Counted from the stretch's first letter, positions 3,572 to 24,900 are shown. The stretch: DNA of 64,000 bases from Armatimonadota bacterium (GCA_039679645.1 JBDKUO010000067.1:28208-92207), one strand, 5' to 3'. Notes: generated by a model not told the origin, from the sequence alone. Numbers and translations are program-made.

Positions 3572-3610
3572 CCGACACATCCTGGTTTTCGGAAGTACAT
3601 ATCAAGTGGG
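3572..3610 (+). promoter_or_regulatory. Conserved ~40-bp phage promoter-like motif, copy 1 (core AGTACATATCAA 3593-3604)
   Basis: ccgacacatcctggttttcggaagtacatatcaagtggg; near-identical to three other copies, each in front of a + strand operon. Confidence 0.6.
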
Positions 3611-3661
3611 AGCGAAACCACGGGGATTCTCTTCCAGGCGCGCCATTTTACCCCGCACCAG

Positions 3662-4000
3662 ATGATCCTTTGGAGGACGGATGTGAACAGAACAGTCTAC
3701 AAAATCCAGTTCGCTAAAAGGCTGCCTGTCGGAATGGTGGACTACCACCTTATGACGGCAGCGCTCGCGGCTGAGAGCCTTTACGGAAGAAACGCGGTGC
3801 GCCTGGACGCGGTGGCGCGGCTTAACTCGAAGAATCGCACAGTAATTATCGATGCTGAGACCCAGGTCGGAGTCGACCTCGCCAAGATGTTCATGGGCTT
3901 CATGACTAACGAGTACGGCGAGAAGAGCTTTGCCGTTACGAAGGCAGAGGAGTTTATGCGCTTTGACGACCAAGAGCTTTTAGCGAGGGTCATTCTGTGA
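3662..4000 (+). CDS. Hypothetical protein, first gene of rightward early operon
   Basis: 112-aa ORF directly downstream of motif copy 1; overlaps next gene by 4 nt. Confidence 0.4.
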   Translation: MILWRTDVNRTVYKIQFAKRLPVGMVDYHLMTAALAAESLYGRNAVRLDAVARLNSKNRTVIIDAETQVGVDLAKMFMGFMTNEYGEKSFAVTKAEEFMRFDDQELLARVIL

Positions 4001-5016
4001 GCAAGCGGTTCCTCACTACCTATTCATTCTGGAACTCGTTTCGTAATTGCCGGAAGGCGTGCGAGTGGCGGTATTTGGAAGAGTTGGTTCCCATCAGTCG
4101 GGACCAGGCTCTCTCATTCGGGACGCTTATCCACTCATGCCTTGAGATGTGGCACGGTGGCAGCGGATTGGATGCGGTGCTTGACTTCATCGACAAGTCA
4201 CTACCGAACCGCTCGCAGGATGAATCCCAGAAGTCCGACTGGCACCTGGCGACGGCAATGATGACGGGTTACGCCGCGCGCTACCCGGTTGAAGAATTCG
4301 AGATTGTTGCTCTTGAGAAGATCTTCGAGGGCAGGATCATAAATCCCGCGACAGGAGCGTGCTCACGGAGTCTTATCATTGCTGGGAAAGTCGACGGCAT
4401 TGTAAGAATCGGCCGGGATTACTACATCCTGGAGCACAAGACTGCCTCGCAGCTAGACGCCGACTATCTTGAGCGACTGTGGACCGACCTACAAATAAGC
4501 CTCTATGCGCATTACGTCGAGCAGGCATTTGGTATCAAGATCGTGGGTGTCATCTACAACGTGCTCGTGAAGGCGAAGCTCCAGCAGAGCAAGGGCGAGA
4601 CCCAGGCCGAGTTTGATACCCGCCGCGCGGAGTTGCTTGCAAAGTCCAAGACCGGCAAGACGACGGCGGCGCGCAAGCTGCCGGAGACCGACGAAACGTT
4701 CCAGGAACGACTGGCCGCGAAGTATGCCGAGCCAGGCATGCTTCATCGTGAGATGCTCTACATCTCGCGTGATCAGTTCGACGCCATGAGAGCCGACCTC
4801 TGGGAGCTTGCCCGGCAGTTCCTCGACTGCCGCCGCCGTGGTGCATTCTATCGCAACACGGCATTCTGCTTTGCCAACCACAGGCAATGCGCCTATTTCC
4901 CGCTGTGCCGTGCAAACGGCAACGAGAATGTGATCGCCAACTTCTACGAGGTAAAACCGCCGCACGAGGAACTGCGGTCGGACGATACTGCTGACCAGGA
5001 TAAGGAGACATTCTAA
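3997..5016 (+). CDS. PD-(D/E)XK nuclease, Cas4/RecB-like exonuclease with C-terminal Cys cluster
   Basis: GKVDGIVRIGRDYYILEHKT (D...ExK), C-terminal FCFANHRQCAYFPLC cysteine cluster, N-terminal CRKACEWRY. Confidence 0.75.
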   Translation: MSKRFLTTYSFWNSFRNCRKACEWRYLEELVPISRDQALSFGTLIHSCLEMWHGGSGLDAVLDFIDKSLPNRSQDESQKSDWHLATAMMTGYAARYPVEEFEIVALEKIFEGRIINPATGACSRSLIIAGKVDGIVRIGRDYYILEHKTASQLDADYLERLWTDLQISLYAHYVEQAFGIKIVGVIYNVLVKAKLQQSKGETQAEFDTRRAELLAKSKTGKTTAARKLPETDETFQERLAAKYAEPGMLHREMLYISRDQFDAMRADLWELARQFLDCRRRGAFYRNTAFCFANHRQCAYFPLCRANGNENVIANFYEVKPPHEELRSDDTADQDKETF

Positions 5017-5750
5017 TGCTGCTTCCAACTGCAAAGACGCCGCCAAAACCCAATCTGGCGGACCTGACGGTGTTATGTTACGGAGCCACGAAGATAGGCA
5101 AGAGCACATGGTGCTCTTATTCCGATAACGCGATCTTCCTATCGACCGAACCGGGTCTCAATTCCCTGGAAGTGTTCCAGGTCCCGATCCGGTCGTGGGA
5201 CGAGCTGCTCACAACCTGCGGCGAGATCGCCGAGGGCAACCATGAGTTCAAGACAGTCATCATCGACACCGTGGACAATGCCTATCGTATGTGCGCGGAC
5301 TACGTCTGCCGGAAGTTTAAGGTCGAGCACGAGTCCGACCTCGGTTACGGAAAGGGATTCTCGCTGACAAATAATGAATTTCAGCGAGTACTGAACAAGC
5401 TTGCATTCATGCCCTACGGCTTGTATCTCGTCTCGCACTCTCAAGAAGTAGAGATCGAGACGAGGACCGGCAAGTACAACAAGACCGTCCCCACATTGCC
5501 GGAGAAGGCACGGAAGATCGTGCTCGGCCTTGTCGACATGGTCCTCTTCTGCGACATCGAGGCCGTTACCGGGCCGGACAACAAGGTCGTGGGGCGGCGG
5601 GTCATGCGCACCAAGCCGAGCATCTATTATGAAGCCGGTGATCGCACCGGCAGGCTTCCCGATATCATCGACCTCGACTATGGCAAGTTCGTCGAGGCGT
5701 TCAATGCCACTGCAGGCGGCAAACAAGCTGCAAAGGAGAAGACAACATGA
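5016..5750 (+). CDS. AAA_24 / Sak4-like RecA-fold ATPase (phage recombination)
   Basis: Walker A CYGATKIGKST; hhhhD Walker B VIIDTVDN; size and neighbourhood (after Cas4-like nuclease) typical of Sak4 module. Confidence 0.7.
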   Translation: MLLPTAKTPPKPNLADLTVLCYGATKIGKSTWCSYSDNAIFLSTEPGLNSLEVFQVPIRSWDELLTTCGEIAEGNHEFKTVIIDTVDNAYRMCADYVCRKFKVEHESDLGYGKGFSLTNNEFQRVLNKLAFMPYGLYLVSHSQEVEIETRTGKYNKTVPTLPEKARKIVLGLVDMVLFCDIEAVTGPDNKVVGRRVMRTKPSIYYEAGDRTGRLPDIIDLDYGKFVEAFNATAGGKQAAKEKTT

Positions 5751-6220
5751 GTACGGACTACTGCCCTAATCAGGATTCGAGTGTCGAAGACTTCGACCTC
5801 GCTCAGTTCGACGGAAGTTATGACGAAGCGCCCATAGAAGAGCGCGAATTCGAGGATGTCCCGGATGGCAAGTATCAGGTAAACGTGGAGAATGTTGAAC
5901 TCACCCGCTCTCAGACATCCGGGAATCCAATGCTCAAGTGGACCCTGAAAATCCTCGGGCCCAAGTATGCCGGAAGACTGTTGTGGCGCAACAACGTCAT
6001 TACCAACGACAGCCTCAAGTGGCTCAAGACCGACCTACATACCTGCGGGGTCACCCTTGGCAAGCTATCTGAACTTCCATCCAGGCTCAACGATCTTTTG
6101 GACGTGAAGCTGGAAGTGACCAAGCGCACCCGGGGCGAGAGCGAAAGCATCTACCTAAACCGCCGCATAGTGGTAGACGACACCAGGGCGGTCGATGAGT
6201 CTGCTCTGGCTCCGTTCTAG
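5747..6220 (+). CDS. Hypothetical protein, possibly DUF669-like ssDNA-binding partner of Sak4
   Basis: 157 aa, acidic N-terminus, gene position after AAA_24 gene; family assignment is by synteny only. Confidence 0.35.
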   Translation: MSTDYCPNQDSSVEDFDLAQFDGSYDEAPIEEREFEDVPDGKYQVNVENVELTRSQTSGNPMLKWTLKILGPKYAGRLLWRNNVITNDSLKWLKTDLHTCGVTLGKLSELPSRLNDLLDVKLEVTKRTRGESESIYLNRRIVVDDTRAVDESALAPF

Positions 6221-6690
6221 TGAAGGCGAAGCCTGTCGTAGTAGTCGACACGCGGGAAAAAGAGCCTTACACGTTCGATCCGGCCCGAGTAGAAGTCGTT
6301 CGCCGTGCGCTTGCTGCTGGTGACTATTCTCTGCTCGGGTTGGAAAGCTCTGTGGCGGTAGAACGCAAGAGCATGGAGGACTTCGTGGGAACCGTGATTC
6401 GTGGGCGGGAGCGGTTCGCAAACGAGCTTGCCAAACTCCGAGGATGCGAATTCGCCTGCGTGGTCGTGGAAGGCAGCCTGATGGACGTTCTCTCCGGCAA
6501 CTACCGGTCCGACGCCCATCCCAATGCCGTGCTCGGCTCTGCGCTTTCCATCATTGTCGACTACCGCATCCCGGTATTCTTTTGCTCAAACAGGCAAGCG
6601 GCGCGTCTGTTTGTCGAGCAGTTGCTTTTGAGACTCAGTGAGAAGGTAGATGCTACATGCCAAAACCAGGAGGTGCCACGACAAAGCTAA
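6220..6690 (+). CDS. ERCC4-type (XPF/Mus81/Hef-like) nuclease domain protein
   Basis: VVVDTREKE ... GDYSL ... VAVERKSMEDFV matches ERCC4 signature (DxRE, GDY, ERK). Confidence 0.5.
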   Translation: MKAKPVVVVDTREKEPYTFDPARVEVVRRALAAGDYSLLGLESSVAVERKSMEDFVGTVIRGRERFANELAKLRGCEFACVVVEGSLMDVLSGNYRSDAHPNAVLGSALSIIVDYRIPVFFCSNRQAARLFVEQLLLRLSEKVDATCQNQEVPRQS

Positions 6691-8867
6691 GAGGCCGGGT
6701 CGTGGCAGTGTTCTACGCCAGCCCGACGTTTTCGGCCGGGAAACTCAAGACAGAGGCTGGTGATAAGGTGTCGTTCGCGGGTCCCGTGTTCGTTCAAGAC
6801 GGGGACCGACTCATTCTGATCGGCAGGTGGGTCAAGCACCCGAAGTTCGGTCGGCAGCTTGAAGTCGAGAGCATGGAATATGACCAGGACCTCGATGCTG
6901 AGGGGCTTGCCAACTATATAGCAAAGCACCCGGACATCAAGGGTATCGGTCCCGCGAAGGCTCGCGTCATAGCAGAGAGGTTCGGAGGTGACTTCGACCG
7001 CTGCCTTGTCGAGGAAGCAGAGCAGATAGCGCAGGCGGCCCATCTTCCGCTTGAGGCAGTCGAGCATCTGCGCGATGTCTGGCAGGAGACCGGCAAGGTA
7101 AACCAGGCAATGACCGCACTTTCGGCTTTCGGCCTCACGCATCTTCAGGTGGTAAGCCTGGTGAAGAAGTTCGGCGGCGCGGCGGTCGGGCTTTTGAAAA
7201 GCGATCCATATTCTATCGTCCGGCTTGTGCCTGGCTTCGGCTTCAAGCGGATCGACCAGATCGCCCGCGAGAAGATGAACGTGCCGAAGGAAACACCGGG
7301 ACGAATTTGTGCTGGCGTCGCATTCTGTGTGGAAGATGCGCTTGAGCAGGGGCACTGCTGGGTGGAATATGAAGAACTCATAGACCGTGCAAATACCCTG
7401 CTGGTAATGGACTGTCTGGACAGCAGGGAACGGATCGAGCACGCCCTCGAAGAGCTTATCAGCGAAAGACAGCTTACATGCTTTGGAACCAGCGGCAGGT
7501 TCCTCGTCGCCATTCCACGTATCCGGGAAATGGAAGAGTATCTTGCGCAAATACTCCGGCGTGGCGATGGTCCCAATCCAAGGTTTCCGAAACTGGCTCC
7601 TGATGCTTTGGATGCTGTCGTGCGCCAAAGTGCTCCGAGTCTTAAGCCCTGGCAGCATAACGCGGTAGCTGCGGCGCTCAGGCATTCCATCACGCTCATA
7701 TCGGGAGGCGCTGGCAGCGGCAAGACATACACCATATCCGCGCTTGTCGGTATCTGCCAGGAATATGACCTGTCCGTCATCCTTGCGGCCCCTACGGGCA
7801 AAGCGGCGAAGCGTATGGAGCAGGTTGTCGGTATGGAAGCGCAGACAATCCATAGGCTTCTCGGCTACGACGGGCATGCGTTCACGCGCGAAAGTGTCGA
7901 CGCCGATGTGGTAGTGATCGACGAGCTTTCCATGGTTGATGTGCCGCTTGCGTGGCATCTTTTCAAGGCCATAGACCTTTCCAAAACGGCTGTTGTGCTG
8001 GTGGGAGATCACAACCAACTCCCGCCCGTGGGACCGGGCAATCTGCTGCGGGACCTTGTGCGCTCACGTGTCGTGCCGACCGTCATACTTGATGGTGTTC
8101 AACGGCAGGCTGGAGTCCTTAAAGAAAACAGCATAGCGATCCTTTCGGGCGAGGTGCGAAAGACGTCAGAAAAGAAACCCGACGGCAGGCGCGCGTGGTA
8201 TGTGATAGACCAGTTCACCGACCCGATGCAGGCTCAGACATTTATCCTTGAGCTGTTCGACAAAGTTCTTTCAGAGAGGCTCAACTTCGACATCATAAAC
8301 GACGTGCAGGTGCTCACACCGACGCACAAGGGTCCGCTCGGCACCCGGGAACTGAATACTCTGCTGCAGAGTCTTGTGCAGCGTAAGCTCTGGGACCGGT
8401 ATGTGGAGCCGACGCCTCCAGGCAAGCGTCCGAAGCTTATGCCCGGCGACAAGGTCATCCAGACCCGCAACAACTACACCACAGGCGTCATGAACGGGGC
8501 TGTTGGAACGGTTGTCGATGCGGACGAGGCCGGAGGGTTGACCATCGACTTCGACGGCACGCTATTGAACTTCGAGAATGGCGCTCCTGAACTCGCCCAC
8601 ATCCAGCTTGCCTTCGCGCTCACGTTTCATAAAGCCCAAGGCTCGGAATATCCCTGCTCGATAGTGGTCGTGCATAAGTCGCACTCATTTATGCATCATC
8701 GTAACTTGCTCTACACGGGAGTCACTCGCGCCTCCGAGTCCGCCATTATCGTAGGCGACCACTGGGGGATCGGGCACTGCGCCAAGGTGAAACAGGTGGA
8801 GGAACGCAAGACATTCCTCTCGCTGCTTTTGGGTCAAACCCTGGATTCGGACAAATGGGGCAAGTAG
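6657..8867 (+). CDS. RecD2-like ATP-dependent DNA helicase (SF1) with helix-hairpin-helix region
   Basis: HhH IKGIGPAKARVIAERFGG; Walker A GGAGSGKT; Walker B VVVIDELSMVD; C-terminal SH3-like/helicase motifs QTRNNY...GDHWG. Confidence 0.85.
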   Translation: MPKPGGATTKLRGRVVAVFYASPTFSAGKLKTEAGDKVSFAGPVFVQDGDRLILIGRWVKHPKFGRQLEVESMEYDQDLDAEGLANYIAKHPDIKGIGPAKARVIAERFGGDFDRCLVEEAEQIAQAAHLPLEAVEHLRDVWQETGKVNQAMTALSAFGLTHLQVVSLVKKFGGAAVGLLKSDPYSIVRLVPGFGFKRIDQIAREKMNVPKETPGRICAGVAFCVEDALEQGHCWVEYEELIDRANTLLVMDCLDSRERIEHALEELISERQLTCFGTSGRFLVAIPRIREMEEYLAQILRRGDGPNPRFPKLAPDALDAVVRQSAPSLKPWQHNAVAAALRHSITLISGGAGSGKTYTISALVGICQEYDLSVILAAPTGKAAKRMEQVVGMEAQTIHRLLGYDGHAFTRESVDADVVVIDELSMVDVPLAWHLFKAIDLSKTAVVLVGDHNQLPPVGPGNLLRDLVRSRVVPTVILDGVQRQAGVLKENSIAILSGEVRKTSEKKPDGRRAWYVIDQFTDPMQAQTFILELFDKVLSERLNFDIINDVQVLTPTHKGPLGTRELNTLLQSLVQRKLWDRYVEPTPPGKRPKLMPGDKVIQTRNNYTTGVMNGAVGTVVDADEAGGLTIDFDGTLLNFENGAPELAHIQLAFALTFHKAQGSEYPCSIVVVHKSHSFMHHRNLLYTGVTRASESAIIVGDHWGIGHCAKVKQVEERKTFLSLLLGQTLDSDKWGK

Positions 8868-8868
8868 C

Positions 8869-11800
8869 ATGGTGGAGGCGGGATTCGACAATGTAAGAGA
8901 GTACTACCAGATCGTAACCGACATCGACATCGGGCTTGTCGCAAGGGAGCTTCTTGCCGGACGGATCACCCAGCAGTCCGAGAAGCTGCTTCAGTGCGAC
9001 TGCCCGAACCACAAGAGCCAGTCCCATCGTTCTCTGCATATACAAATCGACAAACAGTGCTGGTTCTGCTTTGGCTGTGGAATCGGCGGCGACGTGCTGC
9101 AGCTTGCCGAGTTCGTGCAGTCCGGGCGCATCACTGTGGGTGTGACCGGTCCAATGCCTGAGTCTCACCGGCAGGCGCGGGACTACCTTGCCGAAAAAGC
9201 CGGACTTCCACCGCTCGCAAACTACGGACTCTCGCCGGAAAAGATAGCCCAGACCGAGGCCGCCCGCGCGTTCGGGCTTCGTGTCCAGTCTGCGCTCACG
9301 GCTGTCGCCCGCTATTATAACGAACGTCTGAAAGCATCACCCAAGGTGCTGGAGTGGTTCACGCGGCACTATGGCATATCGCTTGAGACAATAGACTCGC
9401 TTCTCATTGGGTATTCTGACGGGACGCCATATACTGACGGCCAGGGCGGTAAGCATCCAGGAATAATATCCGCGCTCACCAGTGGTGATGACCCATTTAC
9501 ATTTCGGGAACTCGCTGCGACCGGCGCTTTCAATCCGACCAGCAATGACGATCTGGTTCCCGCATTCAATAATCGGATCACATTTCCTTACTGGAGCCGT
9601 GGGCGCGTTGTATTTATGATAGGGCGCAAGACTCCATGGACGCCGGAGAGTAATTGGGAGCAGGGCAAGTACAAGAAGCTCAAGTGCCGCGACGAACACT
9701 CCCGCAAGCACATAGCACCGTGCATCAGCAACAGCTTTCTCTACAACGAGGACTGTCTGACGGCGCGGCCGGAGCGCGTAATCATCACCGAGGGTGTGAC
9801 TGACTGTATTTCCCTGATGGAGCGCGATTTCGCCACGGTTTCTCCGGTCACTGTCCAGATAAAGGAGGACGACTGGAAACGGATACTGCCGAAACTCGCG
9901 GGAGTAAAGACGGTCTACATCTGCCAGGACAATGAAGTGTCTGAGGTCGGCCTGAAAGGATCGCTCCGCACGGCGCGTCATCTTGCTTCAGCCGGAATAG
10001 AGACTCGCTTGGTGGTCCTTCCGCTTGAAGAAAAGCACACGACGGCACGCAGCGCCCTGAAGGAGCGGTTCGGTCTGGACTCGGCTGTCGGTCCTCGCGA
10101 GCTTGCAAAGCGCCTTGCCGGGAAGCCGCCGGAGCAGGTCAAGGAAGCCGAGGGTCTGTTCGCCGATGCCAAAGTGGATGTCAATGAGTTCTTTGTCGCC
10201 GGTCATTCAGCGGAGGACTTCGAGTCCCTGCTTGCATCCGCGGTCACGCCGCTCGAATATAGCATCGATAGGATTCCATCGGGGCTACCGGAAACCGAGC
10301 GCAACCGGCTCCTTACCCCAATCCTGTGTGAAGTGGCGGATCTGCCACCACTGGATCAGTCTCGAGAACTGCGGCGAATAGTCGAACGCTGCGGCAGAGA
10401 CGGGCTGTCGATCGGGGTCCTAAAAGAACAGATGAAGGCTCTGCAAAAAGACAAGCAGGCACGGCTGCGCCAGGAGCGCAGGCAAGAGAAGCGGATAAGC
10501 ACCGCCCCAGCAGGTTCCTGCAGGGCGTGTGTTGAACAGGTTTTGCTGGATTCCGAAGCCGAAACGGGAAGCGCCGATTATTCCAAGGCTGCAGAGGCGA
10601 CGTATGATTGGTTTATGTCTCATGGCGCGCGCTTTTTCAAGACTCGTCACGGTGAACCATTCATGTTCTATGATGATGTCATGCTTTGGATGGACTCGTC
10701 CGAGCGGGCGCGCAAACGCGTGTATTCTTCTGTTATTTTCAACGCGACCGGCCTGGTGTCAGCTACCACTGGCGGGCGCATCTTCTTGGAAGTGCTTGCC
10801 AATCTTGCCGCTATTCGCGGTGAGGTTCGGGATCAGTTGTCCTGGCTGCACACCGATGTTGCCAATAACACAGTGTATTTCAACCTGAACAACGAGCGCC
10901 GCGAGATCGCTAAGATAACGCCCGATGGTGTAGAAATAATGAAGAATGGGAGTAACACTGACGGGATTATTCTGGAAGCGTCCGACAAAATCGACCCGAT
11001 AACTTTTATTCCAGATATGGACAACGACGAGGCAGACCGACTTATCATGGAATTGGTGGGCGAGAATCTCACCTGCTCGCCGTCGAACAGGTTCCTTATA
11101 CTTGCCTGGCTTTCCTGTTTCTTGCTTATCGACTTTGCAGGCACACGTCCCATGATTCGGTTCGAGGGCAGTTCGGCGTCGGGCAAGACATCGGCCGCCA
11201 AGCTTATAACTGCCCTTTTGTACGGCCAGCCGCAGCAAAAGAAGGCCACTGATGCTGCCAATTACTCTGATGCTGCACGCAACCCGTTGATTTCACTCGA
11301 TAATGTGGAGTCCAATGATGTAACGGAGGATTTCGTGAACTTCTTGCTCACTAGTATCACTGGGATTGCCAAGGAAAAACGCAAGGCAGGTTCGGATACC
11401 GAGACAGTGATAGAGCGTCCGCGCTGTCTGATAAACACGACCGGCATAGAACCGCTTGCGACCGACCTGACAGAGATTCTTTCACGCTCATTCATCCTGA
11501 AGTTCGAACTCGGAGAAGCGACAGGCAATTGTTTTCTTGAGGCCAAGGTACTCGCGAAAATCCGGCAACACAGAGACGAGATGCTTTCAGTCATAATGAA
11601 ACGCACGAGTTGGGTCTTGAGAATGCTTCAGGATGGTGGTCAGGAACGGGTAATGACATTGCTTCACCGAAACCTGGGAAACCACAGCAAACGGCGCTGC
11701 AACGACTATTTGAGCTTGATGTATCTGATGGGTATTGCCGGAATGCCGGAGGCGGACGTCAAGGTCGCGATGGAATCCATAGACTCCAGGTTTGCGGACA

Positions 11801-12204: not shown

Positions 12205-12275
12205 TGTTGCTCTGGACATCCCAGGGCAGAATTGGTGCCATTCCGACCTTTTCAAATGAAAGCTCTCTTCTATAC

Positions 12276-15668: not shown

Positions 15669-15707
15669 CCCGACACTTTCTGGTTTCCAGGAGTACATAT
15701 CAATTGG
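15669..15707 (+). promoter_or_regulatory. Conserved phage promoter-like motif, copy 2
   Basis: ccgacactttctggtttccaggagtacatatcaattggg, 26 nt upstream of GTG start at 15733. Confidence 0.6.
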
Positions 15708-15732
15708 GGGACATTTCCAGCGGAGGTATACT

Positions 15733-16569: not shown

Positions 16570-17145
16570 TTGATGCGCCTCTCTCGCCCGACTCCGACTT
16601 GCCGTAACAACATAAGCGATAGGAACACACTGATGACTAACGACAAGCAAATCGAACAGACTGAGACTGAGGTCGGCGTCAGAGATCACGACGGAATGGA
16701 CCGTTGGAAAAGGAATGCCGAGCCTATAAATAAGGGCGGCGCTCCCGAAGGCAACACCAATGCGCTGAAGCACGGCATCTACGCGGACCGGTTCCTTACG
16801 CCGGAGGAGAAACCCATCTTCGAGGCAATCATAGCGCAGCTTTACGAGGACTTTGTGTTCAACAAAAGCTCGGACTTCATTCAAGTCGAACTGGTGGCCG
16901 TATACTTCCTTAAGCTGGGCCGCGCGCAGGAGGCTGGCGACTGGGACGCCGCCGAAAGGCTCGACCGGATGATCCGATGCCACATGAAAGACCTGAAGAC
17001 GACTAAGATCAGCCGCGAGGGAGCAGATGCTCGAGGTGACGAGACCACGCCTGCCGAATGGGCGACTGCACTCTTGGAGAAGTACGCCGAGGCCGAGAAA
17101 GCAAAAGCCGATAATCCCACTCCTGATTCGGAAGAAGCGAAATAG
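16570..17145 (+). CDS. Terminase small subunit (true start possibly ATG 16633)
   Basis: GGAPEGNTNALKHGIYA motif characteristic of a terminase small subunit family; position directly before packaging genes. Confidence 0.55.
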   Translation: MMRLSRPTPTCRNNISDRNTLMTNDKQIEQTETEVGVRDHDGMDRWKRNAEPINKGGAPEGNTNALKHGIYADRFLTPEEKPIFEAIIAQLYEDFVFNKSSDFIQVELVAVYFLKLGRAQEAGDWDAAERLDRMIRCHMKDLKTTKISREGADARGDETTPAEWATALLEKYAEAEKAKADNPTPDSEEAK

Positions 17146-17148
17146 TGA

Positions 17149-17556
17149 CTATTGCGTTGACTTGCGGCTGTTCAGGTACTGTGCGGGTGTGAGTACTAGA
17201 ACGCCGTGCACGGAGGTTCCGAAAAAAACTCCAAAGTGCTGGCAGTCGCCGGTGACGAGGTGCGAACATTGCGCGTGCAGGGCGGCAGCCAAAATGGGAG
17301 CGTCTTTGTCTGCAATGTCTATCTCATCGGGCAGCGATGATTCTGAGATGTTTATAATCGTAATTACGTTGCAGAGTTCTTCCAGGCGAAGCAGGGCGCT
17401 TGGTCTATGCGCGGCAAGGTTGCGGCGTGCTTCTTCCAGTGCCAGACGTGATGTCACTAGTTCGACTTGGTCCAGTGACCACAAGTCCGTAAGGCGTGAG
17501 TCCTGACGATATGCAGCTGAAAAAAGGACGTTGGCGTCCAGAAAGACCTTGTCCAT
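17149..17556 (-). CDS. vapC: PIN-domain toxin (VapC-like)
   Basis: MDKVFLDANVL... acidic residues D7, E42-ish, D98-ish; 135 aa; downstream of AbrB-type antitoxin gene. Confidence 0.7.
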   Translation of the reverse strand: MDKVFLDANVLFSAAYRQDSRLTDLWSLDQVELVTSRLALEEARRNLAAHRPSALLRLEELCNVITIINISESSLPDEIDIADKDAPILAAALHAQCSHLVTGDCQHFGVFFGTSVHGVLVLTPAQYLNSRKSTQ

Positions 17557-17562
17557 ACGACT

Positions 17563-17898
17563 TTACTCCGGCTTTTTGTGAGGTATGTTTTCAGGGTCAA
17601 GGCGCATTCGCTTTACCTCTTCAACAGCCGATGCATAGTCAGCCGAGTCAATCGCATTGGACAAAATGAACTCAGCGATCCTTTCAGGGGAATAGCTCTC
17701 TATGGGAAGCGCAACAGCCGGGCGTATCAGAACGCCGTCGCCGGTTTCTTCGGCAATAACTAGTGAGCCTTCGGTGATCCCGAAGCGCTTCCTCAGCTTT
17801 GCCGGAATAACAACTGTGCCACGTTTGCCGACTTTACTGGTTTCTTGAGTCTGTAGTTTGCTCATAATAACCTGCCGGAATATCAGATATTCTAACAT
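17563..17898 (-). CDS. vapB: AbrB/SpoVT/MazE-type antitoxin (VapB-like); likely start at 17865
   Basis: GTVVIPAKLRKRFGITEGSLVIAEE swapped-hairpin motif; 6 nt upstream of PIN toxin gene. Confidence 0.6.
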   Translation of the reverse strand: MLEYLIFRQVIMSKLQTQETSKVGKRGTVVIPAKLRKRFGITEGSLVIAEETGDGVLIRPAVALPIESYSPERIAEFILSNAIDSADYASAVEEVKRMRLDPENIPHKKPE

Positions 17899-18127
17899 TC
17901 AAATTATACCCCTGAACCGGGCTATTTGCAACAACAATCTTGTGAGGAAGTCTGTGAAAACGCGAAAAACAGTTCAGATAACACCGGCGCGACCCTGTAA
18001 AACCGGGTGAAATCACGCGTGAAAAACAGGGGGACTGCAGACGCAATGTCAGATAACACTCATTATCGGAACAAGCGGCGGCCGGGAAATGCCTCGGTGC
18101 TGAAGTTCTTCCCGGCACGGCGCGAGG

Positions 18128-19051
18128 TCAGAGTCGCTCTATCGCGTCTTCGAGTGGTTCGTTCGCAAGGTGAGTGTAGACTTCGGTGCTGCCGATGCAT
18201 AGGTGGCCGAGGGCTTCCTTGACCAGCCGCACATCGGAAGTAGCGGCATAGAGGTGAGTAGCGAAGGTGTGCCGCAGTCCGTGCGGCGTGACGTTCTTCT
18301 GGATTCCGGCTTTGCCGAGCCAGTAAGCAAGGCGCTGGGCGATCTGTCGGCAGCAGAGCCTCGTTCCGCGAGAGGAAACAAACAGTGCGGTGACCTCGGA
18401 GCCTGTCAGTCGGTGGCGCTCTTTGAGGTAACTGCGCAGTAGCGTCCGCAGGGACGATTTCAGGAACTTGGCCTGCGGGATGCCGCCCTTGCCTGTGATG
18501 TAGATGTGTTTGCCGTCAAGATCGACGTCGTCGATGTCGAGGCTCACAAGTTCGGCTATGCGAATTCCGGTGCCGAGGAAGAGTTCAAAGATGACCCGGT
18601 CGCGGCGTGCGAGCGGACTGGTTCGGTCGTGCAGTTCCTTAATAAGCCTGCGCTTCTCGTGTTCGGTGAGGAACTTCGGCAGCTTACGGGAGAGTCGTCT
18701 GGACGTGATCGACCTGCCCGGGTTGGATTCCACCAGGCCGCTTTCGGCAGCCCAGGTGAAGAAGGCTCGCAGCGTGGCCTTCAGCCGATACATTGTCGCA
18801 GGGGACTTCAGCGAGCCATTTTCGGAGCAGATCAGTGCGGGATCGGCGAGCGCCGTGTCCATTATCGTAGGCGTCACTTCGTATATTCCAATGCCCGGTA
18901 TGGCTCTGGCAAAGCAGTGCAGGTCGCGCAGGTAGGCGGAAACGGTAAGCTCCGAGCGACCTTGTGCCCGGAGCCTTACCGCGAAGTCATCTATTGCCTG
19001 TTCGAGACTGCTGCTAGGCTGCAGCAGCCGGATCGATGTGTTCGTCGGCAT
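18128..19051 (-). CDS. Tyrosine recombinase (XerC/D-like) located inside the packaging module
   Basis: N-terminal SAM-like LTVSAYLRDLHCFARA; catalytic R (ARRDRV), HGLRHTFATHL, terminal Tyr in GSTEVYTHL. Confidence 0.85.
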   Translation of the reverse strand: MPTNTSIRLLQPSSSLEQAIDDFAVRLRAQGRSELTVSAYLRDLHCFARAIPGIGIYEVTPTIMDTALADPALICSENGSLKSPATMYRLKATLRAFFTWAAESGLVESNPGRSITSRRLSRKLPKFLTEHEKRRLIKELHDRTSPLARRDRVIFELFLGTGIRIAELVSLDIDDVDLDGKHIYITGKGGIPQAKFLKSSLRTLLRSYLKERHRLTGSEVTALFVSSRGTRLCCRQIAQRLAYWLGKAGIQKNVTPHGLRHTFATHLYAATSDVRLVKEALGHLCIGSTEVYTHLANEPLEDAIERL

Positions 19052-19451
19052 TTGTCACCTCGTCTGTAGTCTTGAGACTGTGGCCAAGTGGGACGTCCTT
19101 TGGTAGCGGGAGCTTGCTGATGTAGCCCCGCTCCAAACACCAGGCAAGGAAAACTCGGAAGACGCGGATGGTCTTCTTGATCGTGATTTCCGAACGGTCT
19201 TTGTCGCCGTGCATTTTGAGAAGTATGTCCGACTTGAGAAAGCCGGAGACGTGGGGAATGAGGATCGAGCGGAGCTTCTTGTCAGGGCCGAAGTAAGCTT
19301 CAACCTGCTCGAAGTCCTTTCCATACGTGTAAAGGGTGCGCTCGCTCTTGCCTTGGCTCTTGAGGTATTCAACGTGTTCCTCAATGGCCTCGTGTAGTGT
19401 TTTCTGTTCCATTTCACTACCTCCAGTGGTTGTGTTGTTCACATGGATCAC
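19014..19451 (-). CDS. Integrase N-terminal (SAM-like core-binding) domain protein, separate ORF overlapping recombinase start
   Basis: 145 aa; TLYTYGKDFEQVEAYF...IRVFRVFLAWCLERGYI pattern of phage integrase N-terminal domain. Confidence 0.4.
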   Translation of the reverse strand: MIHVNNTTTGGSEMEQKTLHEAIEEHVEYLKSQGKSERTLYTYGKDFEQVEAYFGPDKKLRSILIPHVSGFLKSDILLKMHGDKDRSEITIKKTIRVFRVFLAWCLERGYISKLPLPKDVPLGHSLKTTDEVTNADEHIDPAAAA

Positions 19452-21043
19452 TCATATCGCGTTTGAAGTCAAGGGTTCTTGCCTCGAATGTGCGAGAAAA
19501 AGCGGAGGAAAAACAGTTGGTTGAGATAACGTCGGAAGAAGAAAGACTGGGAATGTCGCTGCGGGACCCGGTGCTCTGGGGTGAGAAGTACCTGCGCAAT
19601 CGGGACGGTTCCGCGCGCAGTTATTGGCCACACCAGATCGACGACCTCAAGTGCGAGGATCGGAACATCATCCACCTCGACGGCCGTGATTGCGGAAAGT
19701 CGATATCGCTTACGACTGATGCTCTGCACTTCGCCTTTACCAAACGCGGCGGCCAGGGGCTCATCGCTGCTCCCCACCAGGGACACCTCGATACGCTCAT
19801 TGAGGAGATTGAGTTTCAACTCGATTCCAACTCCGAGCTTATGAGAAGCATTGCCCTCACCAAATACGGTAAGCCGAAGATCACACGCAAGCCGTACTTC
19901 AGACTGGAGTTCACCAACGGCGCGGTCCTCTATTTCCGACCTGCCGGGGCCTACGGCGACGCCTTCAGATCATTGCACGTCGAGCGTGTCTGGGTAGACG
20001 AAGGCGCATGGCTCACCGAAAAGGCATGGAAGGCTCTCCGGCAGTGCCTCAAGGCCGGAGGACGACTGCGTATATACTCGACTCCGAACGGCCTGCGGAA
20101 CACCACCTACTACCGGCTCACGACGTCGCCGCAGTTTGAGGTATTCAGGTGGCCGTCGTGGATAAACCCGGACTGGAGTGAGGAGCGCGAACGCGAACTC
20201 CTTGAGTTCTACGGTGGACGCGACACTGCGGGCTGGCAGCACGAGGTCGCCGGTGAACACGGCAAGCCGTCCTACGGTGCGTTCAACGTCGAGCACTTGA
20301 ACCTCTGCCGACAGGAAATGCCGGAGTATTTGAAGGTCGTGATAACTGGCGAGGGCATGCGCGACTGCGTAACTGAAGAAGAATCATACGACCGCCTGGA
20401 GATGCTCCTGAACCTGATGCCGCAGACCGGCGTCTTCTGGATAGGCGGCGACCTGGGTTACACCAATGACCCGACAGAGATCGTCGTCTTTCAGGAGATA
20501 GAGGTCGGGGACCGCTCGGTCGTGAAACTCGCGCTGCGAATCCACATGGAGCACGTTTCATACCCGCACATTGCTCAGACGATCAGCCTGCTTGAGCGAT
20601 ATTTCACTCCGGTCGGGATCGGTGTGGACAATGGCGGCAACGGTCTGGCGGTCGTGCAGGAACTACTCACACTCGACAAATATAAACCTCTCCAGCTTGA
20701 AGGTCGACTGCGCGGTTACGACTTCGGCGGTATGACAACACTTGCCGTGCGCGAAGGCCAGGAGGTGAAGAAGCGTACCAAGGAGCTTATGACCAGTCTT
20801 ATTAACGGCGTGCTCCAGCGCAGGCAGCTAGTCCTGCCTGCCGACGATCTTGAGATAGAGGACCAGTTCACCACTCACACATATACTCTCTCGAACGGCA
20901 ATGTCATCTACTCCAAAGGCAACGACCACATAATCGACGCCGTGCGCTGCGCGATGCTGGTGCGGGAACAGAGAAGCCTGGACCATGTAACCGAGGAGAC
21001 GGTCTGTGTCATGCCGGTGCTTACCGACCCGATATTTTTCTGA
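19397..21043 (+). CDS. Terminase large subunit (real start probably near 19553)
   Basis: ATPase Walker A-like HLDGRDCGKS, Walker B-like VWVDEGAW; C-terminal nuclease-like acidic motifs (GIGVDNGGNG, NDHIIDAV). Confidence 0.8.
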   Translation: MFSVPFHYLQWLCCSHGSLISRLKSRVLASNVREKAEEKQLVEITSEEERLGMSLRDPVLWGEKYLRNRDGSARSYWPHQIDDLKCEDRNIIHLDGRDCGKSISLTTDALHFAFTKRGGQGLIAAPHQGHLDTLIEEIEFQLDSNSELMRSIALTKYGKPKITRKPYFRLEFTNGAVLYFRPAGAYGDAFRSLHVERVWVDEGAWLTEKAWKALRQCLKAGGRLRIYSTPNGLRNTTYYRLTTSPQFEVFRWPSWINPDWSEERERELLEFYGGRDTAGWQHEVAGEHGKPSYGAFNVEHLNLCRQEMPEYLKVVITGEGMRDCVTEEESYDRLEMLLNLMPQTGVFWIGGDLGYTNDPTEIVVFQEIEVGDRSVVKLALRIHMEHVSYPHIAQTISLLERYFTPVGIGVDNGGNGLAVVQELLTLDKYKPLQLEGRLRGYDFGGMTTLAVREGQEVKKRTKELMTSLINGVLQRRQLVLPADDLEIEDQFTTHTYTLSNGNVIYSKGNDHIIDAVRCAMLVREQRSLDHVTEETVCVMPVLTDPIFF

Positions 21044-21413: not shown

Positions 21414-21454
21414 CCGACACTTCCCGGTTTTGGCGAGTACATATCAAGTAGAGG
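21414..21454 (+). promoter_or_regulatory. Conserved phage promoter-like motif, copy 3
   Basis: ccgacacttcccggttttggcgagtacatatcaagtagagg, 47 nt upstream of portal ATG 21501. Confidence 0.6.
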
Positions 21455-21500: not shown

Positions 21501-23012
21501 ATGAAAAACTCCAGACGACGATCAGGGCCACGAAAAGCTGTGTCCGACCAGCCGGGCATGCGGACCGACGGTATTGTCGTTGCGCCGCTTGCGTCAGCGG
21601 CGGCACTAGACTCCTCCACGTTTGCCGGTGTGAATGCAATTGATGTCATCCCAAAGACCTGGGAAGAGCGCGCTAAGAAAGCCTGGGATTACTACGTCGA
21701 GGAGCCGCTTGTCAAAAACTGCATCAACTCCTGGCGGACGTTTGCCGTTGGAGACGAGATACGGATATCCAGCAACGACGACACCGTCAAGACCGAGGCA
21801 AACGATCTTGCCGACAAGCTCGGCATCTCTGAGTTCGTAAAAGACATGGTCCTCCAACTTCTCGTTAAAGGCGACGCAGTAGGCTTCAAGCATTACGCAA
21901 AAGATGGCAGAGACATCGAAGAGCTGACGTGCGTGAACCCGATCTCGATTAAGGTCAAATACGCTCAGTGCCAGCTAATCGAAATTCAGCAGTTTCCCGG
22001 TGATGGTCTGGCTGTAGGCGACGGCCTGAAGCTGCCCATTGAGCAGACCCTGCACCTTAAGTGGGACGCGCCGTCGTTTTCCCCTCGCGGCAACTCACTC
22101 GTGCTTCCGGCCTTCCAGTCCATCGAGTTGCTGCGTGACTACCGAAGGGCTGAACAGGCCATAGCTAAGCGCTGGGCGACACCGTTTCGCCTGCTCAAAG
22201 TCGGCGGTGCATTCGGTCAGAAGATGATAATGCCCGACCAGAAGATGCTCGAACAGACACGCGACATGGTCAACAGAATGGATATGAAAAGCGGCCTGGT
22301 CGTGCCGTTCTACATCACCGTCGAGACCCACGGTACTGAAGGCCAGGTTCTCAATGTCGAGGACAAAGTCAAGGATGTCAAGGAAGACATCGTCGTCGCT
22401 CTCGGCCTGTCGCGTTCTCTTGTGGCTGGCGACGGCCCCAACTTTGCCACGGCATCAGTCTCTATGCAGAAGATGCTCATCATGATCCGCGAGATTAAGC
22501 ATGCGGCGAAAACCATACTCGACTGGGTGTTCGACGACTGGCTGGAGATCGCGGGGCATCAGGGCAAAAGCGTCCAGTTCGTCTTCAACGACCTCGATCC
22601 GACCGATGCGGTAGACTTCAAGAAGCTCCTTATCGAGCTATACGACCGGAAACTCATAAGCCGATCAAGTCTGCAATTGAAGATGGACCTTGACCCGGAT
22701 ACCGAGACGGCAAATCGGCAGCACGAGGGTCAGTCGGTCGACTTGCTCGATGAGAAGCAGGTCAAGCCAATCGTGGACATGGTCGTGGCCGGGATAATGA
22801 GTATAGAGACCGCGCAGCAGATGCTCGGCCTCGATCCGGCGAAGAACCGACCGGATGGCCAGACAGCCGCGTCCCTCTATTCCAGCGTGGGTGTCGGCGA
22901 GATGTGCGACTCCTGTGCCTACTTTGGCGAGGATCACAACTGCTGCGGAGTCACGCAAGCCGAGACAACTTTCGATTCCCCGGCATGCCGCTTCTTCGTG
23001 CGACAAAGATGA
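21501..23012 (+). CDS. Portal protein (ORF open from 21213; start chosen at ATG 21501 after promoter motif)
   Basis: ~500 aa between TerL and MuF-like gene; C-terminal Cys cluster CDSCAYFGEDHNCCG...ACRFF. Confidence 0.65.
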   Translation: MKNSRRRSGPRKAVSDQPGMRTDGIVVAPLASAAALDSSTFAGVNAIDVIPKTWEERAKKAWDYYVEEPLVKNCINSWRTFAVGDEIRISSNDDTVKTEANDLADKLGISEFVKDMVLQLLVKGDAVGFKHYAKDGRDIEELTCVNPISIKVKYAQCQLIEIQQFPGDGLAVGDGLKLPIEQTLHLKWDAPSFSPRGNSLVLPAFQSIELLRDYRRAEQAIAKRWATPFRLLKVGGAFGQKMIMPDQKMLEQTRDMVNRMDMKSGLVVPFYITVETHGTEGQVLNVEDKVKDVKEDIVVALGLSRSLVAGDGPNFATASVSMQKMLIMIREIKHAAKTILDWVFDDWLEIAGHQGKSVQFVFNDLDPTDAVDFKKLLIELYDRKLISRSSLQLKMDLDPDTETANRQHEGQSVDLLDEKQVKPIVDMVVAGIMSIETAQQMLGLDPAKNRPDGQTAASLYSSVGVGEMCDSCAYFGEDHNCCGVTQAETTFDSPACRFFVRQR

Positions 23013-24574
23013 TCTGCACTATTGCATCGGATTTAACTCCGCAGGCTCAGGCGATCCGCGAAGCCACGCTCAAGAGTCTACATGCCCGTGACCTATACTC
23101 CGAGCAGATCGCGCACGAACTGACACAGTCCTTAAAGACCGCGCAGGAACAGGTACGCAAAGTGCTCCTCAACTATAAGAGCCTGGGGTCACTGCCCGAC
23201 AACAAACTCGCCGCCTTGAAAGGTCTTGAGAAGCTGGACGCGGAGATAGGCGACCTGATGAAGACGCTCAAGAAAGAGCAGACTCTGGTGTTCCGCAAGG
23301 CTTCCCGCGCGTCGTTCAGGTCTGGCATATATCACGGCATCGGGGAATTCGTCGCGGCGCAGTTGCCTTTCTACCGTGATCTTGCACCAGACGGGATAGA
23401 CAAGCTCACCACGTCTATGTTTACCCTTATCGACACCGACGCGCTCGATTTTATTGTCAACTACAACCTCGTGCTTGCAGCCGATGTGCATCGGGAGCTT
23501 TCAGACGGCATCAAGCGCACGATCCTCTCCGGGATTGCCACAGGCAAAGGGGTAGACGACATCGTCCGCGACCTGGGCAGGGTCATCGAGAACAAGGAAT
23601 CATTCCGCAACGCGGGAAGCAAGGTGTTCAGCCGGGCGCAGTATCGCATGGAGATGATTGCCCGCACCGAAGTCCTGCGCGCTCACAACCAGGGTCGCAT
23701 CAAGTTTTACCAGCAGGTCGGCGTTCAGAAGCTCGAATGGATGGCTGTGGAAGACGAGCGGATGTGCCCTGTCTGCGGCGGTCTCGACGGCCAAGTATTC
23801 GACATTGACAAATTCCCCAACATCCCGGCACATCCTCTATGCCGCTGCCAGTCTCTGCCAGCATGGCCGCTGGTTGTAAGCGGCGGCGAACTCGGCGCTG
23901 CGGCTACCAAGGATAAGCCCGCCTGCATTCTATCTCCGCAGGCGATCCAGGAGCAGGCAAGACGGAAGATAGAGGAAGAGAAGATGCTCAAGGGCGCATT
24001 CGAGTCAGGCCAGATCGCGGATTTGAGCGCCCTTACGGTAAAACAGCTACAGACGCTGGCAAAACAAAACGGCATATCAATCGCGCGCACCAAGTCCGAC
24101 TTCATCAAGCTGCTTGATCTGGTGGAGCCGGGGGTTCACCACAGTGATCTATCGGGAGCGGTGCTGCAGGCGAAGATAGGGCAGTACAACATCGCGGCGT
24201 TACGGGGTAAAGACGAACTCGTGAAGCTGTTGGCCGAAAAGCAGGCTGCAATCAGGAAGGCGAAGGCTCTTGAGGAAGCCGCGAAGAACGCGATCTCTCA
24301 GGAAGGTCTTGCCGCTCTCAGCGTGGCCAAACTCAGGGAGATGGCCAAAGATCAAGGTATTCCTCTGAGCCTTACGAAGAGCGAGGTTATTGAAATGCTG
24401 GATACGCTCGAACCCGGAGTGGATCACTCAGGTCTTGCCGGAAAAGCGCTCGCTGCTGCGAAAGCCAGGCATAACATCGGGTCCATCAAGAATAAGGATC
24501 AGCTCATAAATGCTTTGGAGAAGGTCGCCGGTCAAAAGATGGCGCTTCGTGTTCTCCGAGATAAGCAGCCCTGA
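23009..24574 (+). CDS. Head morphogenesis protein, MuF/SPP1 gp7 family, with duplicated C-terminal SAP/Rho-N-like domain
   Basis: MCPVCGGLDGQVF...AHPLCRCQ motif; ATGA overlap with portal stop; two ~70-aa repeats LTVKQLQTLAKQNGISIARTKSDFIKLLDLVEPGV / LSVAKLREMAKDQGIPLSLTKSEVIEMLDTLEPGV. Confidence 0.8.
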   Translation: MICTIASDLTPQAQAIREATLKSLHARDLYSEQIAHELTQSLKTAQEQVRKVLLNYKSLGSLPDNKLAALKGLEKLDAEIGDLMKTLKKEQTLVFRKASRASFRSGIYHGIGEFVAAQLPFYRDLAPDGIDKLTTSMFTLIDTDALDFIVNYNLVLAADVHRELSDGIKRTILSGIATGKGVDDIVRDLGRVIENKESFRNAGSKVFSRAQYRMEMIARTEVLRAHNQGRIKFYQQVGVQKLEWMAVEDERMCPVCGGLDGQVFDIDKFPNIPAHPLCRCQSLPAWPLVVSGGELGAAATKDKPACILSPQAIQEQARRKIEEEKMLKGAFESGQIADLSALTVKQLQTLAKQNGISIARTKSDFIKLLDLVEPGVHHSDLSGAVLQAKIGQYNIAALRGKDELVKLLAEKQAAIRKAKALEEAAKNAISQEGLAALSVAKLREMAKDQGIPLSLTKSEVIEMLDTLEPGVDHSGLAGKALAAAKARHNIGSIKNKDQLINALEKVAGQKMALRVLRDKQP

Positions 24575-24859
24575 TTGCTGCTGCGTGCCGATTCGCCGAT
24601 AGGCTTTATAATTGTTATCCCGCTGACCGCCGCAAACCGGGCGCGCGCTTTACTTTGAGCATCCCTTGCAAAGCTCGTCTATCTTTTCCAGCGCGGTCCT
24701 CACGTGTCGAGCCGACACCGTTTTGTGGCCCGAATCACCCGAGTGGTCCGTGTAGTCTTGTCAGTGATTCTCGGAGCTATTATACGGAGAACCACCAGAT
24801 CGCTAAAGTCAACGCACTTGCCCTATCCAACTTCCAGCATCGCACACCACAAAATTATT

Positions 24860-24900
24860 TCGACACTTTCTGGATTTCAGAAGTACATATCAAATAGAGG
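24860..24900 (+). promoter_or_regulatory. Conserved phage promoter-like motif, copy 4
   Basis: tcgacactttctggatttcagaagtacatatcaaatagagg, 39 nt upstream of ATG 24939. Confidence 0.6.

Follow-up and report, generated by a model that had tools for sequence, protein, structure and literature searches.

A bipartite promoter-like motif at six operon heads of a temperate Armatimonadota phage and its proposed pairing with a phage-encoded sigma factor

The 64,000-nucleotide stretch of DNA considered here, which comes from an Armatimonadota bacterium (GCA_039679645.1, JBDKUO010000067.1:28208-92207) and is referred to in its entirety as the window, carries a myovirus-like temperate phage integrated in the metagenome-assembled genome (MAG) of an uncultured Armatimonadota bacterium, and it raises the question of what reads a conserved unit of about 40 bp that recurs at the heads of the operons of this phage. 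An earlier note on this DNA had proposed phage-specific promoters, read either by a phage-encoded sigma factor or activator, with the open reading frame (ORF) at 2139-2726 named as the obvious candidate, or by a single-subunit phage RNA polymerase. The answer that we consider likely, judging from sequence comparisons, is that the six sites found in the window are bipartite promoters for the host core RNA polymerase in association with the product of ORF 2139-2726, a phage sigma factor that resembles the extracytoplasmic function (ECF) class. The sigma part of the earlier proposal is thereby upheld, by the fold of the protein, the fixed-spacer bipartite structure of the motif, the co-variation of the motif with the sigma clade, and the linkage of the motif to the stop codon of the sigma gene.

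The earlier note had described four copies, at 3572-3610, 15669-15707, 21414-21454 and 24860-24900, each upstream of a plus-strand operon. All four are present at these positions with the consensus as first written and do precede plus-strand operons, but the window holds six copies, and the two that had been overlooked lie on the minus strand and drive minus-strand operons. The motif is bipartite, consisting of yCGACA(C), a spacer of 17 nt (18 nt in copy 5, the lysis copy) and GTAnnTA, with the 12-mer AGTACATATCAA being invariant in the five consensus copies. Copy 1 (P-early; 3572-3611, plus strand) is composed of CCGACA at 3572-3577, a 17-nt spacer and GTACATA at 3595-3601; its core AGTACATATCAA at 3594-3605 is followed by GTGGGA, it heads the early operon at 3683-12485, and its ortholog is kept in four related loci (L029, L063, L066 and L068; L numbers denote the loci compared). 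Copy 2 (15670-15709, plus; CCGACA-17-GTACATA, core 15692-15703) lies upstream of a 277-aa gene (GTG at 15733) and of TerS (16570-17145), and has an ortholog at L053:1397. Copy 3 (21414-21453, plus; CCGACA-17-GTACATA, core 21436-21447) precedes the portal gene (ATG at 21501) and the head-morphogenesis gene (to 24574), and copy 4 (24860-24899, plus; TCGACA-17-GTACATA, core 24882-24893; ortholog L050:3578) precedes a 1277-aa methyltransferase gene (ATG at 24939) and then the capsid and tail genes up to about 49.4 kb. Of the two newly recognized copies, copy 5 (2092-2132, minus; TCGACA-18-GTACATA, core 2109-2098) is exact, begins about 7 nt past the stop codon of the sigma gene, has a minus-strand ATG (2063) 34 nt downstream, and heads the minus-strand lysis genes together with a large serine recombinase. 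Copy 6 (3401-3441, minus; CCGACA-17-GTAAATA, core AGTAAATAACTAA at 3419-3407) is a variant, the unit of which reads CCGACACTTCATGGATTACAGAAGTAAATAACTAAGTGGGGG; it points away from copy 1 and toward a 102-aa gene followed by the sigma gene, which makes it a candidate for an autoregulatory promoter of the sigma operon.

Chance does not account for these sites. When up to one mismatch to the core is allowed, the window contains five matches versus 0.15 expected, and none of 100 shuffled sequences reaches five. A position weight matrix (PWM) built from all instances finds exactly six sites in the window and nothing weaker, the five consensus copies scoring 47-56 and copy 6, the variant, scoring 24.7, compared with a maximum of 15 in shuffled sequences. 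Comparison of the 550-nt oriented regions all against all detects similarity only at positions 400-441, i.e. in the unit of about 40 bp, with unrelated flanks. A larger repeat or a mobile element as the source of the motif was rejected on these grounds, and, because the similarity is restricted to the 40-bp unit, the motif is a discrete element and not a piece of a longer repeat. All six sites are intergenic, are oriented in the same direction as the next gene and lie 29-170 nt before start codons equipped with Shine-Dalgarno sequences, the distances from the end of the core to the likely start codon being 77, 29, 53, 45, 34 and about 170 nt for copies 1-6, respectively (77 nt for copy 1 refers to the GTG at 3683; it becomes 56 nt if the start is the ATG at 3662). 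In the same PWM scan every copy falls at the head of an operon, and the junctions between genes of one operon are free of it. Since the early genes and the sigma operon have the motif in front of them as well, it does not form a "late" promoter class. In the gaps upstream of copies 3 and 4 the ORF lists show no convincing gene; a terminator-like hairpin is found at 24704-24718, in the gap upstream of copy 4.

The proposed reader of the motif is a divergent, 195-aa sigma factor with a TTG start, encoded on the minus strand at 2139-2726 and identical to ABFD83_14325. It matches PHROG 1740, annotated as "RNA polymerase sigma factor", with an E-value of 4e-13, and TIGR02937 with an E-value of 7e-7 over the whole profile (residues 18-186). 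The AlphaFold (AF2) model of the protein (predicted local distance difference test score, pLDDT, 68) consists of a three-helix N-terminal and a four-helix C-terminal domain, with helices at 12-81 and 128-188 joined by a disordered linker of about 40 aa, and its best structural matches are nearly all sigma factors, mostly of the ECF class, aligned over the full length with a probability of 0.9-1.0 (AlgU, sigma-E, L, H, K and W, and CnrH among the top ones). Judging from this model and the length of 195 aa, the protein has the sigma-2 and sigma-4 domains only, without region 1.1 or region 3. The earlier description of the protein as an ECF-type sigma factor holds as far as the two-domain organization and the ECF fold matches are concerned and does not hold for the curated profile scores and the AAC/CGT promoter signature; because the protein fails on both of these, it is ECF-like and not a member of the ECF class. 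No known anti-sigma domain was found among the neighbors of the sigma gene, i.e. the 102-aa DUF2292-like protein upstream and the lysis genes downstream. The family to which the sigma factor belongs is large, with 501 cluster representatives at E<=1e-30 and 3,366 at E<=1e-10 in an exhaustive profile search, nearly all of them about 195 aa long. In a tblastn search of 50,697 deposited phage records only Wolbachia phage WO has homologs (22-26% identity, full length), and the same search of 72,556 plasmids gave none.

Conservation of the motif follows the sigma factor closely. The 12-mer is unchanged in relatives that are just 70-76% identical in DNA, and AGTACATATCAA is exact at all sites in eight phage lineages (the window and seven relatives), the sigma factors of which are at least 69% identical; this invariance reflects purifying selection, as far as sequence comparison can tell. 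When the sigma factor diverges further, the core changes with it. At 60% sigma identity (L080) the core reads GGTACATATCAA; at 49% (L068) it reads AGTAAATATCTAA at both syntenic sites, lysis and early; at 40% (L069 and L070) the form CCTCAC-15-GATAAATATCTA occurs at two positions; and at 27-38% the form is CCGAC(A/G)-17-GGTA(G/T/A)GTA. The candidate promoter allele that goes with the L068 sigma factor is GTAAATATCTAA, and that of the L069 sigma factor is GATAAATATCTA. The specificity of the motif thus appears to track the sigma clade in the manner of a cognate pair, the relation being correlative. The variant copy 6 is itself conserved, being AGTAAATAACTAA in the window and in L029 (L029:5119) and AGTAAATAAGTAC in L063 (L063:878); it is kept in relatives and is therefore a distinct version of the promoter and not a decayed copy. 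In the distant clades L073 and L077, a sigma-type promoter likewise lies directly upstream of the sigma gene.

The linkage extends across the sigma family. A search for the exact core in distant sigma loci gave no match, and the link surfaced there only when the DNA right after the sigma stop codon was inspected: loci with sigma factors of 27-38% identity have the same bipartite layout straight after the stop, such as CCGACG...GGTAGGTA in L057, CCGACAC...GGTATGTAA in L073, CCGACAC...GGTAGGTAA in L075 and L060, and CCGACG...GGTATCTA in L058. The pattern CCGAC[AG]-N14-18-[AG]GTAn[ACG]TA occurs 16 times in 224 kb versus 0.33 times in shuffled sequences, and the spacer from CGACR to GTAnnTA is 17 nt in 20 of the 24 unique instances and 18 nt in three of the 24. 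Two conserved blocks at such a constant distance from each other characterize -35/-10 promoters of the sigma-70 family. The pattern was tested independently on about 150 further loci from viral contigs, fetched with two sub-profiles, none of which had been used to define it. In its strict form it is present in 15 of 112 unique loci, each time starting 2-7 nt past the sigma stop, with four matches in 1.4 Mb elsewhere. With the -10 element relaxed to RTAnVTAH and sought within -25 to +50 of the sigma stop, 45 of 81 non-redundant loci have it, clustered at +24 to +32, versus 0.8 +/- 0.9 (maximum 5) in the controls. The remaining clades have recognizable variants, e.g. CCGTCA or GCGTCAAC with GGGTAAGTA or GGCATAGGTAAC. 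Because the element recurs at a fixed place after the sigma stop in independent loci, the sigma gene and the cis element are, on the evidence of these sequences, linked across the family.

Outside this phage and its relatives the motif is essentially restricted to isolated matches. The pattern was scanned in 185,579 representative genomes, one per species, in which single matches are scattered at about the chance rate (38 stretches versus about 140 expected, the latter being our own estimate). No copy is present in the window at 50-64 kb or in the left flank (L083), and the possibility raised in the earlier note, that the motif would prove abundant in host DNA of non-promoter context, did not materialize: the non-phage part of the window and the left flank have no copy, and the genomes scanned, apart from the contig described next, give single matches at about the chance rate. 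Only one other contig, JBDKSP010000077.1 of an Armatimonadota MAG, has multiple matches, namely four, and it belongs to a related phage, 66-77% identical in the alignable genes. Its copies occupy the syntenic early, lysis, 277-aa-gene and methyltransferase positions, and an extra copy lies before a tail gene, where the window has a ParE insertion. The same synteny is observed on contigs of sigma homologs of 83-49% identity, and alignments of the window with a relative of about 73% identity end exactly at the 5' edge of the motif.

Several findings weigh against the assignment of the motif to the phage sigma factor. The profile scores of the protein are below the curated thresholds (Sigma70_r2, 19.5 bits versus a cut-off of 24; TIGR02937, 29.1 versus 42.9), its match to PDB by sequence only is weak, and the motif, yCGACA-17-GTAnnTA, is without the classical ECF signature of AAC at -35 and CGT at -10. 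The 102-aa and 105-aa proteins travel with the sigma factor, and co-occurrence cannot separate the three. The relaxed -10 pattern was matched in just 56% of the independent loci; in several relatives the -35 block of the lysis copy is degenerate; and TerL and the tail genes stand behind minus-strand insertions without a motif copy of their own. Finally, no convincing match to the motif appeared in phage WO, which alone among deposited phages has a homolog of the sigma factor. A de novo motif search in WO rose no higher than AT-rich noise, and the sequence that follows its sigma gene deviates from the spacing.

Among the other explanations, the first is that the sites are read by a host sigma factor, housekeeping or alternative, perhaps with the help of a phage activator bound to the additional conserved bases, and that the phage sigma-like protein does something else. 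The block (T/C)CGACA agrees with TTGACA in 4-5 of 6 positions, the equivalents of T-12 and A-11 are retained in TACATA, and the spacing of 17-18 nt is sigma-70-like; moreover, most phages have their early genes transcribed by the host holoenzyme, and in this phage the motif also stands before the early operon. However, the -7 T, the most conserved position of the -10 element after A-11, is A in every copy, and a generic sigma-70 scan rejects all six sites, whereas the genes in the same element that would be expected to use the host holoenzyme have near-consensus TTGACA/TATAAT promoters. Those insertions that were scanned have TTTACA-18-TATAAT and TTGCAA-17-TATAAT, and these, together with a promoter of the sigma operon described below, reach 10-11 of 12 matches. 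No activator gene was identified, and neither the invariance over 12 bp, nor the change of the motif together with the sigma clade, nor its fixed offset from the sigma stop in unrelated contigs would be expected from a host-read site. We therefore regard a host reader as unlikely, and the phage sigma factor as the likely one.

It is also conceivable that the 12-mer core is not part of a promoter and is instead an asymmetric site for a DNA-binding protein of the phage, either a stoperator-type repressor, which would block elongation in the lysogen, or a late activator. The stoperators of L5 and Bxb1 are 13-bp asymmetric repressor sites found at 20-30 positions, also inside operons, and the motif is like them in being short, asymmetric, invariant, intergenic and in one orientation relative to transcription. 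A search for a CI-like repressor among the small and the minus-strand ORFs found none, so that the control of lysogeny would be left unexplained, a point in favor of this reading. Against this, conservation extends over about 40 bp, and a second block at a fixed distance of 17 nt matches the layout of a -35/-10 promoter and not that of a 13-bp operator; there are only six of these bipartite units, all at operon heads and none inside operons; and no candidate repressor gene was found, the linkage being to the sigma gene. This explanation appears very improbable.

Still less credit is given to the notion that the unit acts in RNA, as a 5' leader, a processing site or an antitermination element, and that the transcripts start further upstream. 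It draws on the tendency of the first ~9 nt past the core to pair downstream, with a summed duplex energy of -185 versus -150 +/- 10 (0 of 2000 shuffles), and on the stem of the early leader, which is kept in five phages. The most conserved bases, those of CGACA and the 12-mer, are nevertheless outside the hairpins and have no pairing partner, relatives share no conserved sequence ahead of the unit, and a search for promoters further upstream of copies 2-5 found none. An individually notable hairpin is present in only two of the six leaders of the window, and the motif region has no Rfam hit at the gathering score, a spurious microRNA hit appearing only at the E-value threshold. As for the promoters of a T7-like single-subunit or other non-canonical RNA polymerase, of which the long near-invariant motif, the G-rich start and the 5' hairpin, all reminiscent of T7 class III promoters, might make one think, they can be dismissed almost entirely, with the single-subunit option of the earlier note: the phage has no RNA polymerase gene, its ORFs of more than 700 aa are all accounted for (RecD2 helicase, primase-helicase, NACHT protein, tape measure and the methyltransferase, the 1277-aa product of which has no RNA polymerase match among PDB sequences), and bipartite geometry with a 17-nt spacer is not T7-like.

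The leaders that follow the motif have features of their own. Orthologous lysis leaders differ in a compensatory manner (CTGGGAG/CTCCCAG, TAGAGG/CCTCTA and GGGGGACGG/CCGTTCCCC), and a 5'-terminal stabilizing stem-loop on the transcripts is plausible. An N4-like hairpin within the promoter spacer was considered as well and rejected, as inspection of the six spacers revealed no consistent pairing. As a separate observation, an invariant CCAGGCGCGCC is found directly after the 5' stem of the early leader, in the window (3634-3644) and in L029, L063, L066, L068, L069 and L070, and it is kept even where the promoter core has changed.

If the motif is read by the phage sigma factor, the next question is how that factor is itself controlled. 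Between copies 1 and 6, and aimed at the sigma operon, lies a canonical sigma-70-type promoter that the earlier note had missed (3487-3516, minus; TTGACC-18-TATAAT with a TG extension, 11 of 12 matches). Within its spacer is a perfect palindrome, CGAACACTTGTTCG (3498-3511), which fits GAAC-N4-GTTC and by its sequence resembles a LexA/Cheo-type box, and would thus be a putative LexA site. Promoter and box are kept in L063, L029, L066 and L068 with 0-1 changes in the half-sites, the box being shifted in L068 to just downstream of the -10 element. It has to be noted that the LexA call relies on the Cheo box of Gram-positive bacteria, which may not be the LexA motif of Armatimonadota, and this counts against the proposed control.

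Between this promoter and the sigma gene, the transcript would also contain a structured leader (2729-2859, minus), made up of a hairpin of about 29 bp, a U-rich tract and an 8-bp hairpin sequestering the ribosome-binding site (RBS), after which the TTG start codon follows. The leader folds with -79.3 kcal/mol (z -6.8), has no Rfam match, and probably gates the expression of the sigma factor. In the leader region 2721-2870 of the window (minus strand), the 14-nt GTTGTGGGTGTCGC is invariant in an alignment of 12 loci with sigma factors of 38-100% identity. It can pair either locally, forming the 29-bp hairpin followed by the U-rich tract, or with a conserved CGACACCCAC located about 15 nt before the RBS-sequestering hairpin, and the leader looks like an attenuator or a riboswitch-like element. 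A leader peptide upstream of the sigma gene (GTG GGT GTC GCC ...) was entertained and rejected: only the first four codons are kept, and indels between relatives shift the frame, and the conservation is therefore at the level of the nucleic acid. Separately from this, GTGTCG inside GTTGTGGGTGTCGC is the reverse complement of the -35 block of the promoter.

In the circuit that we infer from these elements, the sigma operon would be silent in the lysogen, its sole host-type promoter (3516-3487, minus) bearing the LexA-box-like palindrome, with the terminator-like hairpin, the RBS-sequestering hairpin and the TTG start codon acting as extra gates on the sigma gene. DNA damage would lift the repressor, proposed to be LexA, and the host holoenzyme would make the sigma factor, which would then boost its own operon via the variant copy 6. 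Binding to the five consensus copies of the motif, it would fire the promoters of the replication and recombination genes, of lysis and integrase, of TerS, of the portal and head genes, and of the methyltransferase, head and tail genes. Transcription would start at the purine of the conserved NTRG, 6-7 nt past the -10 block, which would put TACATA at -12 to -7 and CGACA in the -35 region, and the transcripts would be G-rich at the start and often fold into a 5' stem-loop. The order of these events in time, like the start positions, the binding of the sigma factor to the motif and the role of LexA as the repressor, is a prediction of this scheme.

One can tentatively go further and see in the motif one allele of a cis element that belongs to the whole family. 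The sigma factors of about 195 aa in temperate phages (501 clusters, PHROG 1740, with distant relatives in WO) might then each be a single lytic master switch, acting via yCGrCr-17-(G/A)TAnGTA, always just after the sigma stop, and doing so without a CI-type repressor, lysogeny being maintained jointly by host LexA at a single sigma-A promoter and by an RNA gate (the attenuator with GTTGTGGGTGTCGC and the RBS-sequestering hairpin). As a whole this generalization is possible, though we would put it on the doubtful side.

The remaining gene content of the phage, the right end of which is near 50 kb, places the six copies in context. Leftward of the sigma gene on the minus strand, copy 5 is followed by a 63-aa ORF (2063-1872), an M15 peptidase/endolysin (1875-1468), a DUF2924 gene (1417-956) and, left of the latter and past the left end of the window, the large serine recombinase. 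The 102-aa gene (2928-3236, minus) contains weak DUF2292-like repeats, is co-transcribed ahead of the sigma gene in this arrangement and is present in all close relatives. The early operon served by copy 1 encodes, besides a 105-aa gene, a PD-(D/E)XK nuclease, AAA_24, DUF669, ERCC4, a RecD2-like helicase, a primase-helicase and a 93-aa ORF. The 105-aa gene (3683-4000), the first behind the early promoter, has an N-terminal motif like xVY(K/R)YxF and no Pfam hit; it also stands behind the sigma-linked promoter in the distant clades L057, L069, L072, L073 and L075, and its product could be a co-factor of the sigma factor. The packaging and structural genes comprise TerL (19397-21043), the portal (21501-23012), the head-morphogenesis gene (22904-24574), the 1277-aa Dam-like methyltransferase (24939-28772), and the major capsid protein, sheath, tape measure, baseplate J and fibre genes (29169 to about 49400).

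The plus-strand flow of genes is broken by minus-strand insertions, namely a DUF4062-NACHT gene, an AbrB/PIN pair, an Xer-like recombinase and a ParE pair. The first of them, located between the early and packaging modules (12276-15098, minus), encodes a 940-aa protein with DUF4062 and NACHT and has a near-consensus sigma-70 promoter of its own (15163-15134); a role in defence, with expression from the prophage, is probable for it. The AbrB/PIN pair and the Xer-like tyrosine recombinase lie between TerS and TerL (17149-19451, minus), and the ParE-type toxin pair lies before a tail gene (39723-40167, minus), where the window has no motif copy; in the related phage (L041:3409) that tail site is occupied by another insertion, behind which the extra copy stands. 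The 1277-aa protein combines two D12-class adenine methyltransferase domains with an extended C-terminal part for which no homologs could be detected; one possibility is that it is packaged and serves against restriction. For the major capsid protein (29169-30029), the nearest relative on deposit is in the Bacillus jumbo phage G, at 28% identity. Megablast of the window's first 24 kb detected no match in deposited phages, which suggests that they contain practically no sample of this lineage. Two overlapping ORFs at the right end of the phage (49469-50217) make up a split amidoligase_2 gene, the result of either a frameshift or pseudogene formation, and beyond it there are seven tyrosine recombinase genes (50267-53492, 54020-57323 and 58587-59672, the last on the minus strand), including two back-to-back sets of three overlapping genes, an arrangement that is typical of recombinase-in-trio elements.

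What emerges is a complete and testable regulatory map for a temperate phage of Armatimonadota, a little-studied phylum for which we found no published study of prophage regulation. It comes with a rule for recognizing the cognate promoter across a large family of viral sigma factors, which databases now annotate only as "sigma factor" or "hypothetical". With this rule, hundreds of metagenomic phages could have their operon starts and their lytic switch predicted from sequence alone. The clade-specific pairs of sigma factor and promoter (GTACATA, GTAAATA, GTAGGTA, ATAGGTA and others) are, in addition, candidate orthogonal expression parts.

Compared with classical ECF sigma factors, the system of the window has the same sigma-2/sigma-4 architecture, a stringent bipartite promoter with a fixed spacer, and probable autoregulation, and it differs by its sub-threshold profile hidden Markov model (HMM) scores, the linker of about 40 aa, the lack of an adjacent anti-sigma gene and of the AAC/CGT signature. 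Wolbachia phage WO is similar in being temperate, in having a serine recombinase and in the position of its sigma gene beside an AAA_24 replication module, and is set apart by the lack of a matching promoter motif; to our knowledge, the function of its sigma factor has not been characterized. Xpf, the sigma factor of the defective prophage PBSX, is under the control of the phage repressor Xre and drives the late operon only, whereas the window has six promoters that include those of the early genes and of the sigma operon, and no phage repressor was found in it. Xpf is described as a group IV sigma factor (PMC10141391, citing McDonnell et al. 1994), and the likeness lies in a two-domain sigma factor of a prophage that serves as the positive control factor of a lytic programme induced by DNA damage.

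Among virulent phages, gp36 of phiEco32 recognizes the motif tAATGTAtA, and gp47 of the Salmonella phage 7-11 recognizes GTAAtg-16-aCTA at eight sites (PMC12276001, PMC8948821). Both resemble the window in combining sigma-2-like and sigma-4-like domains with a conserved phage motif before several operons, and 7-11 also in its bipartite promoter and in a stem-loop before the sigma gene. They differ in being virulent enterobacterial podoviruses, the early genes of which are read by host sigma-70, in the need of gp36 for the co-factor gp79, and in their consensus, and the tblastn search with the window sigma factor matches neither of them.

A close precedent in circuit design is SigN (ZpdN) of the Bacillus subtilis plasmid pBS32, the gene of which is transcribed from a strong sigma-A promoter under LexA repression and from a second promoter that SigN itself activates, and which controls a regulon (PMC6751061). 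Both would be ECF-like sigma factors borne by a mobile element, triggered by damage, self-activating and with a regulon across the element, LexA control being proposed here from sequence features; in contrast, SigN has no detectable homology to the window sigma factor in the plasmid search, its promoter consensus differs, and its regulon reportedly omits the prophage-like structural genes (PMC6751061), whereas the motif of the window heads replication, lysis/integration, packaging, head and tail genes. A sigma factor of a mobile element that is freed by the SOS response and locked on by autoactivation is thus already known from Bacillus, and the present case is a useful extension and not a surprise. 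By analogy, the element described here would work like SigN, Xpf, gp36 and gp47, and would differ from them in its consensus, in covering early as well as late genes, in operating where no phage repressor was found, and in the phylum of its host.

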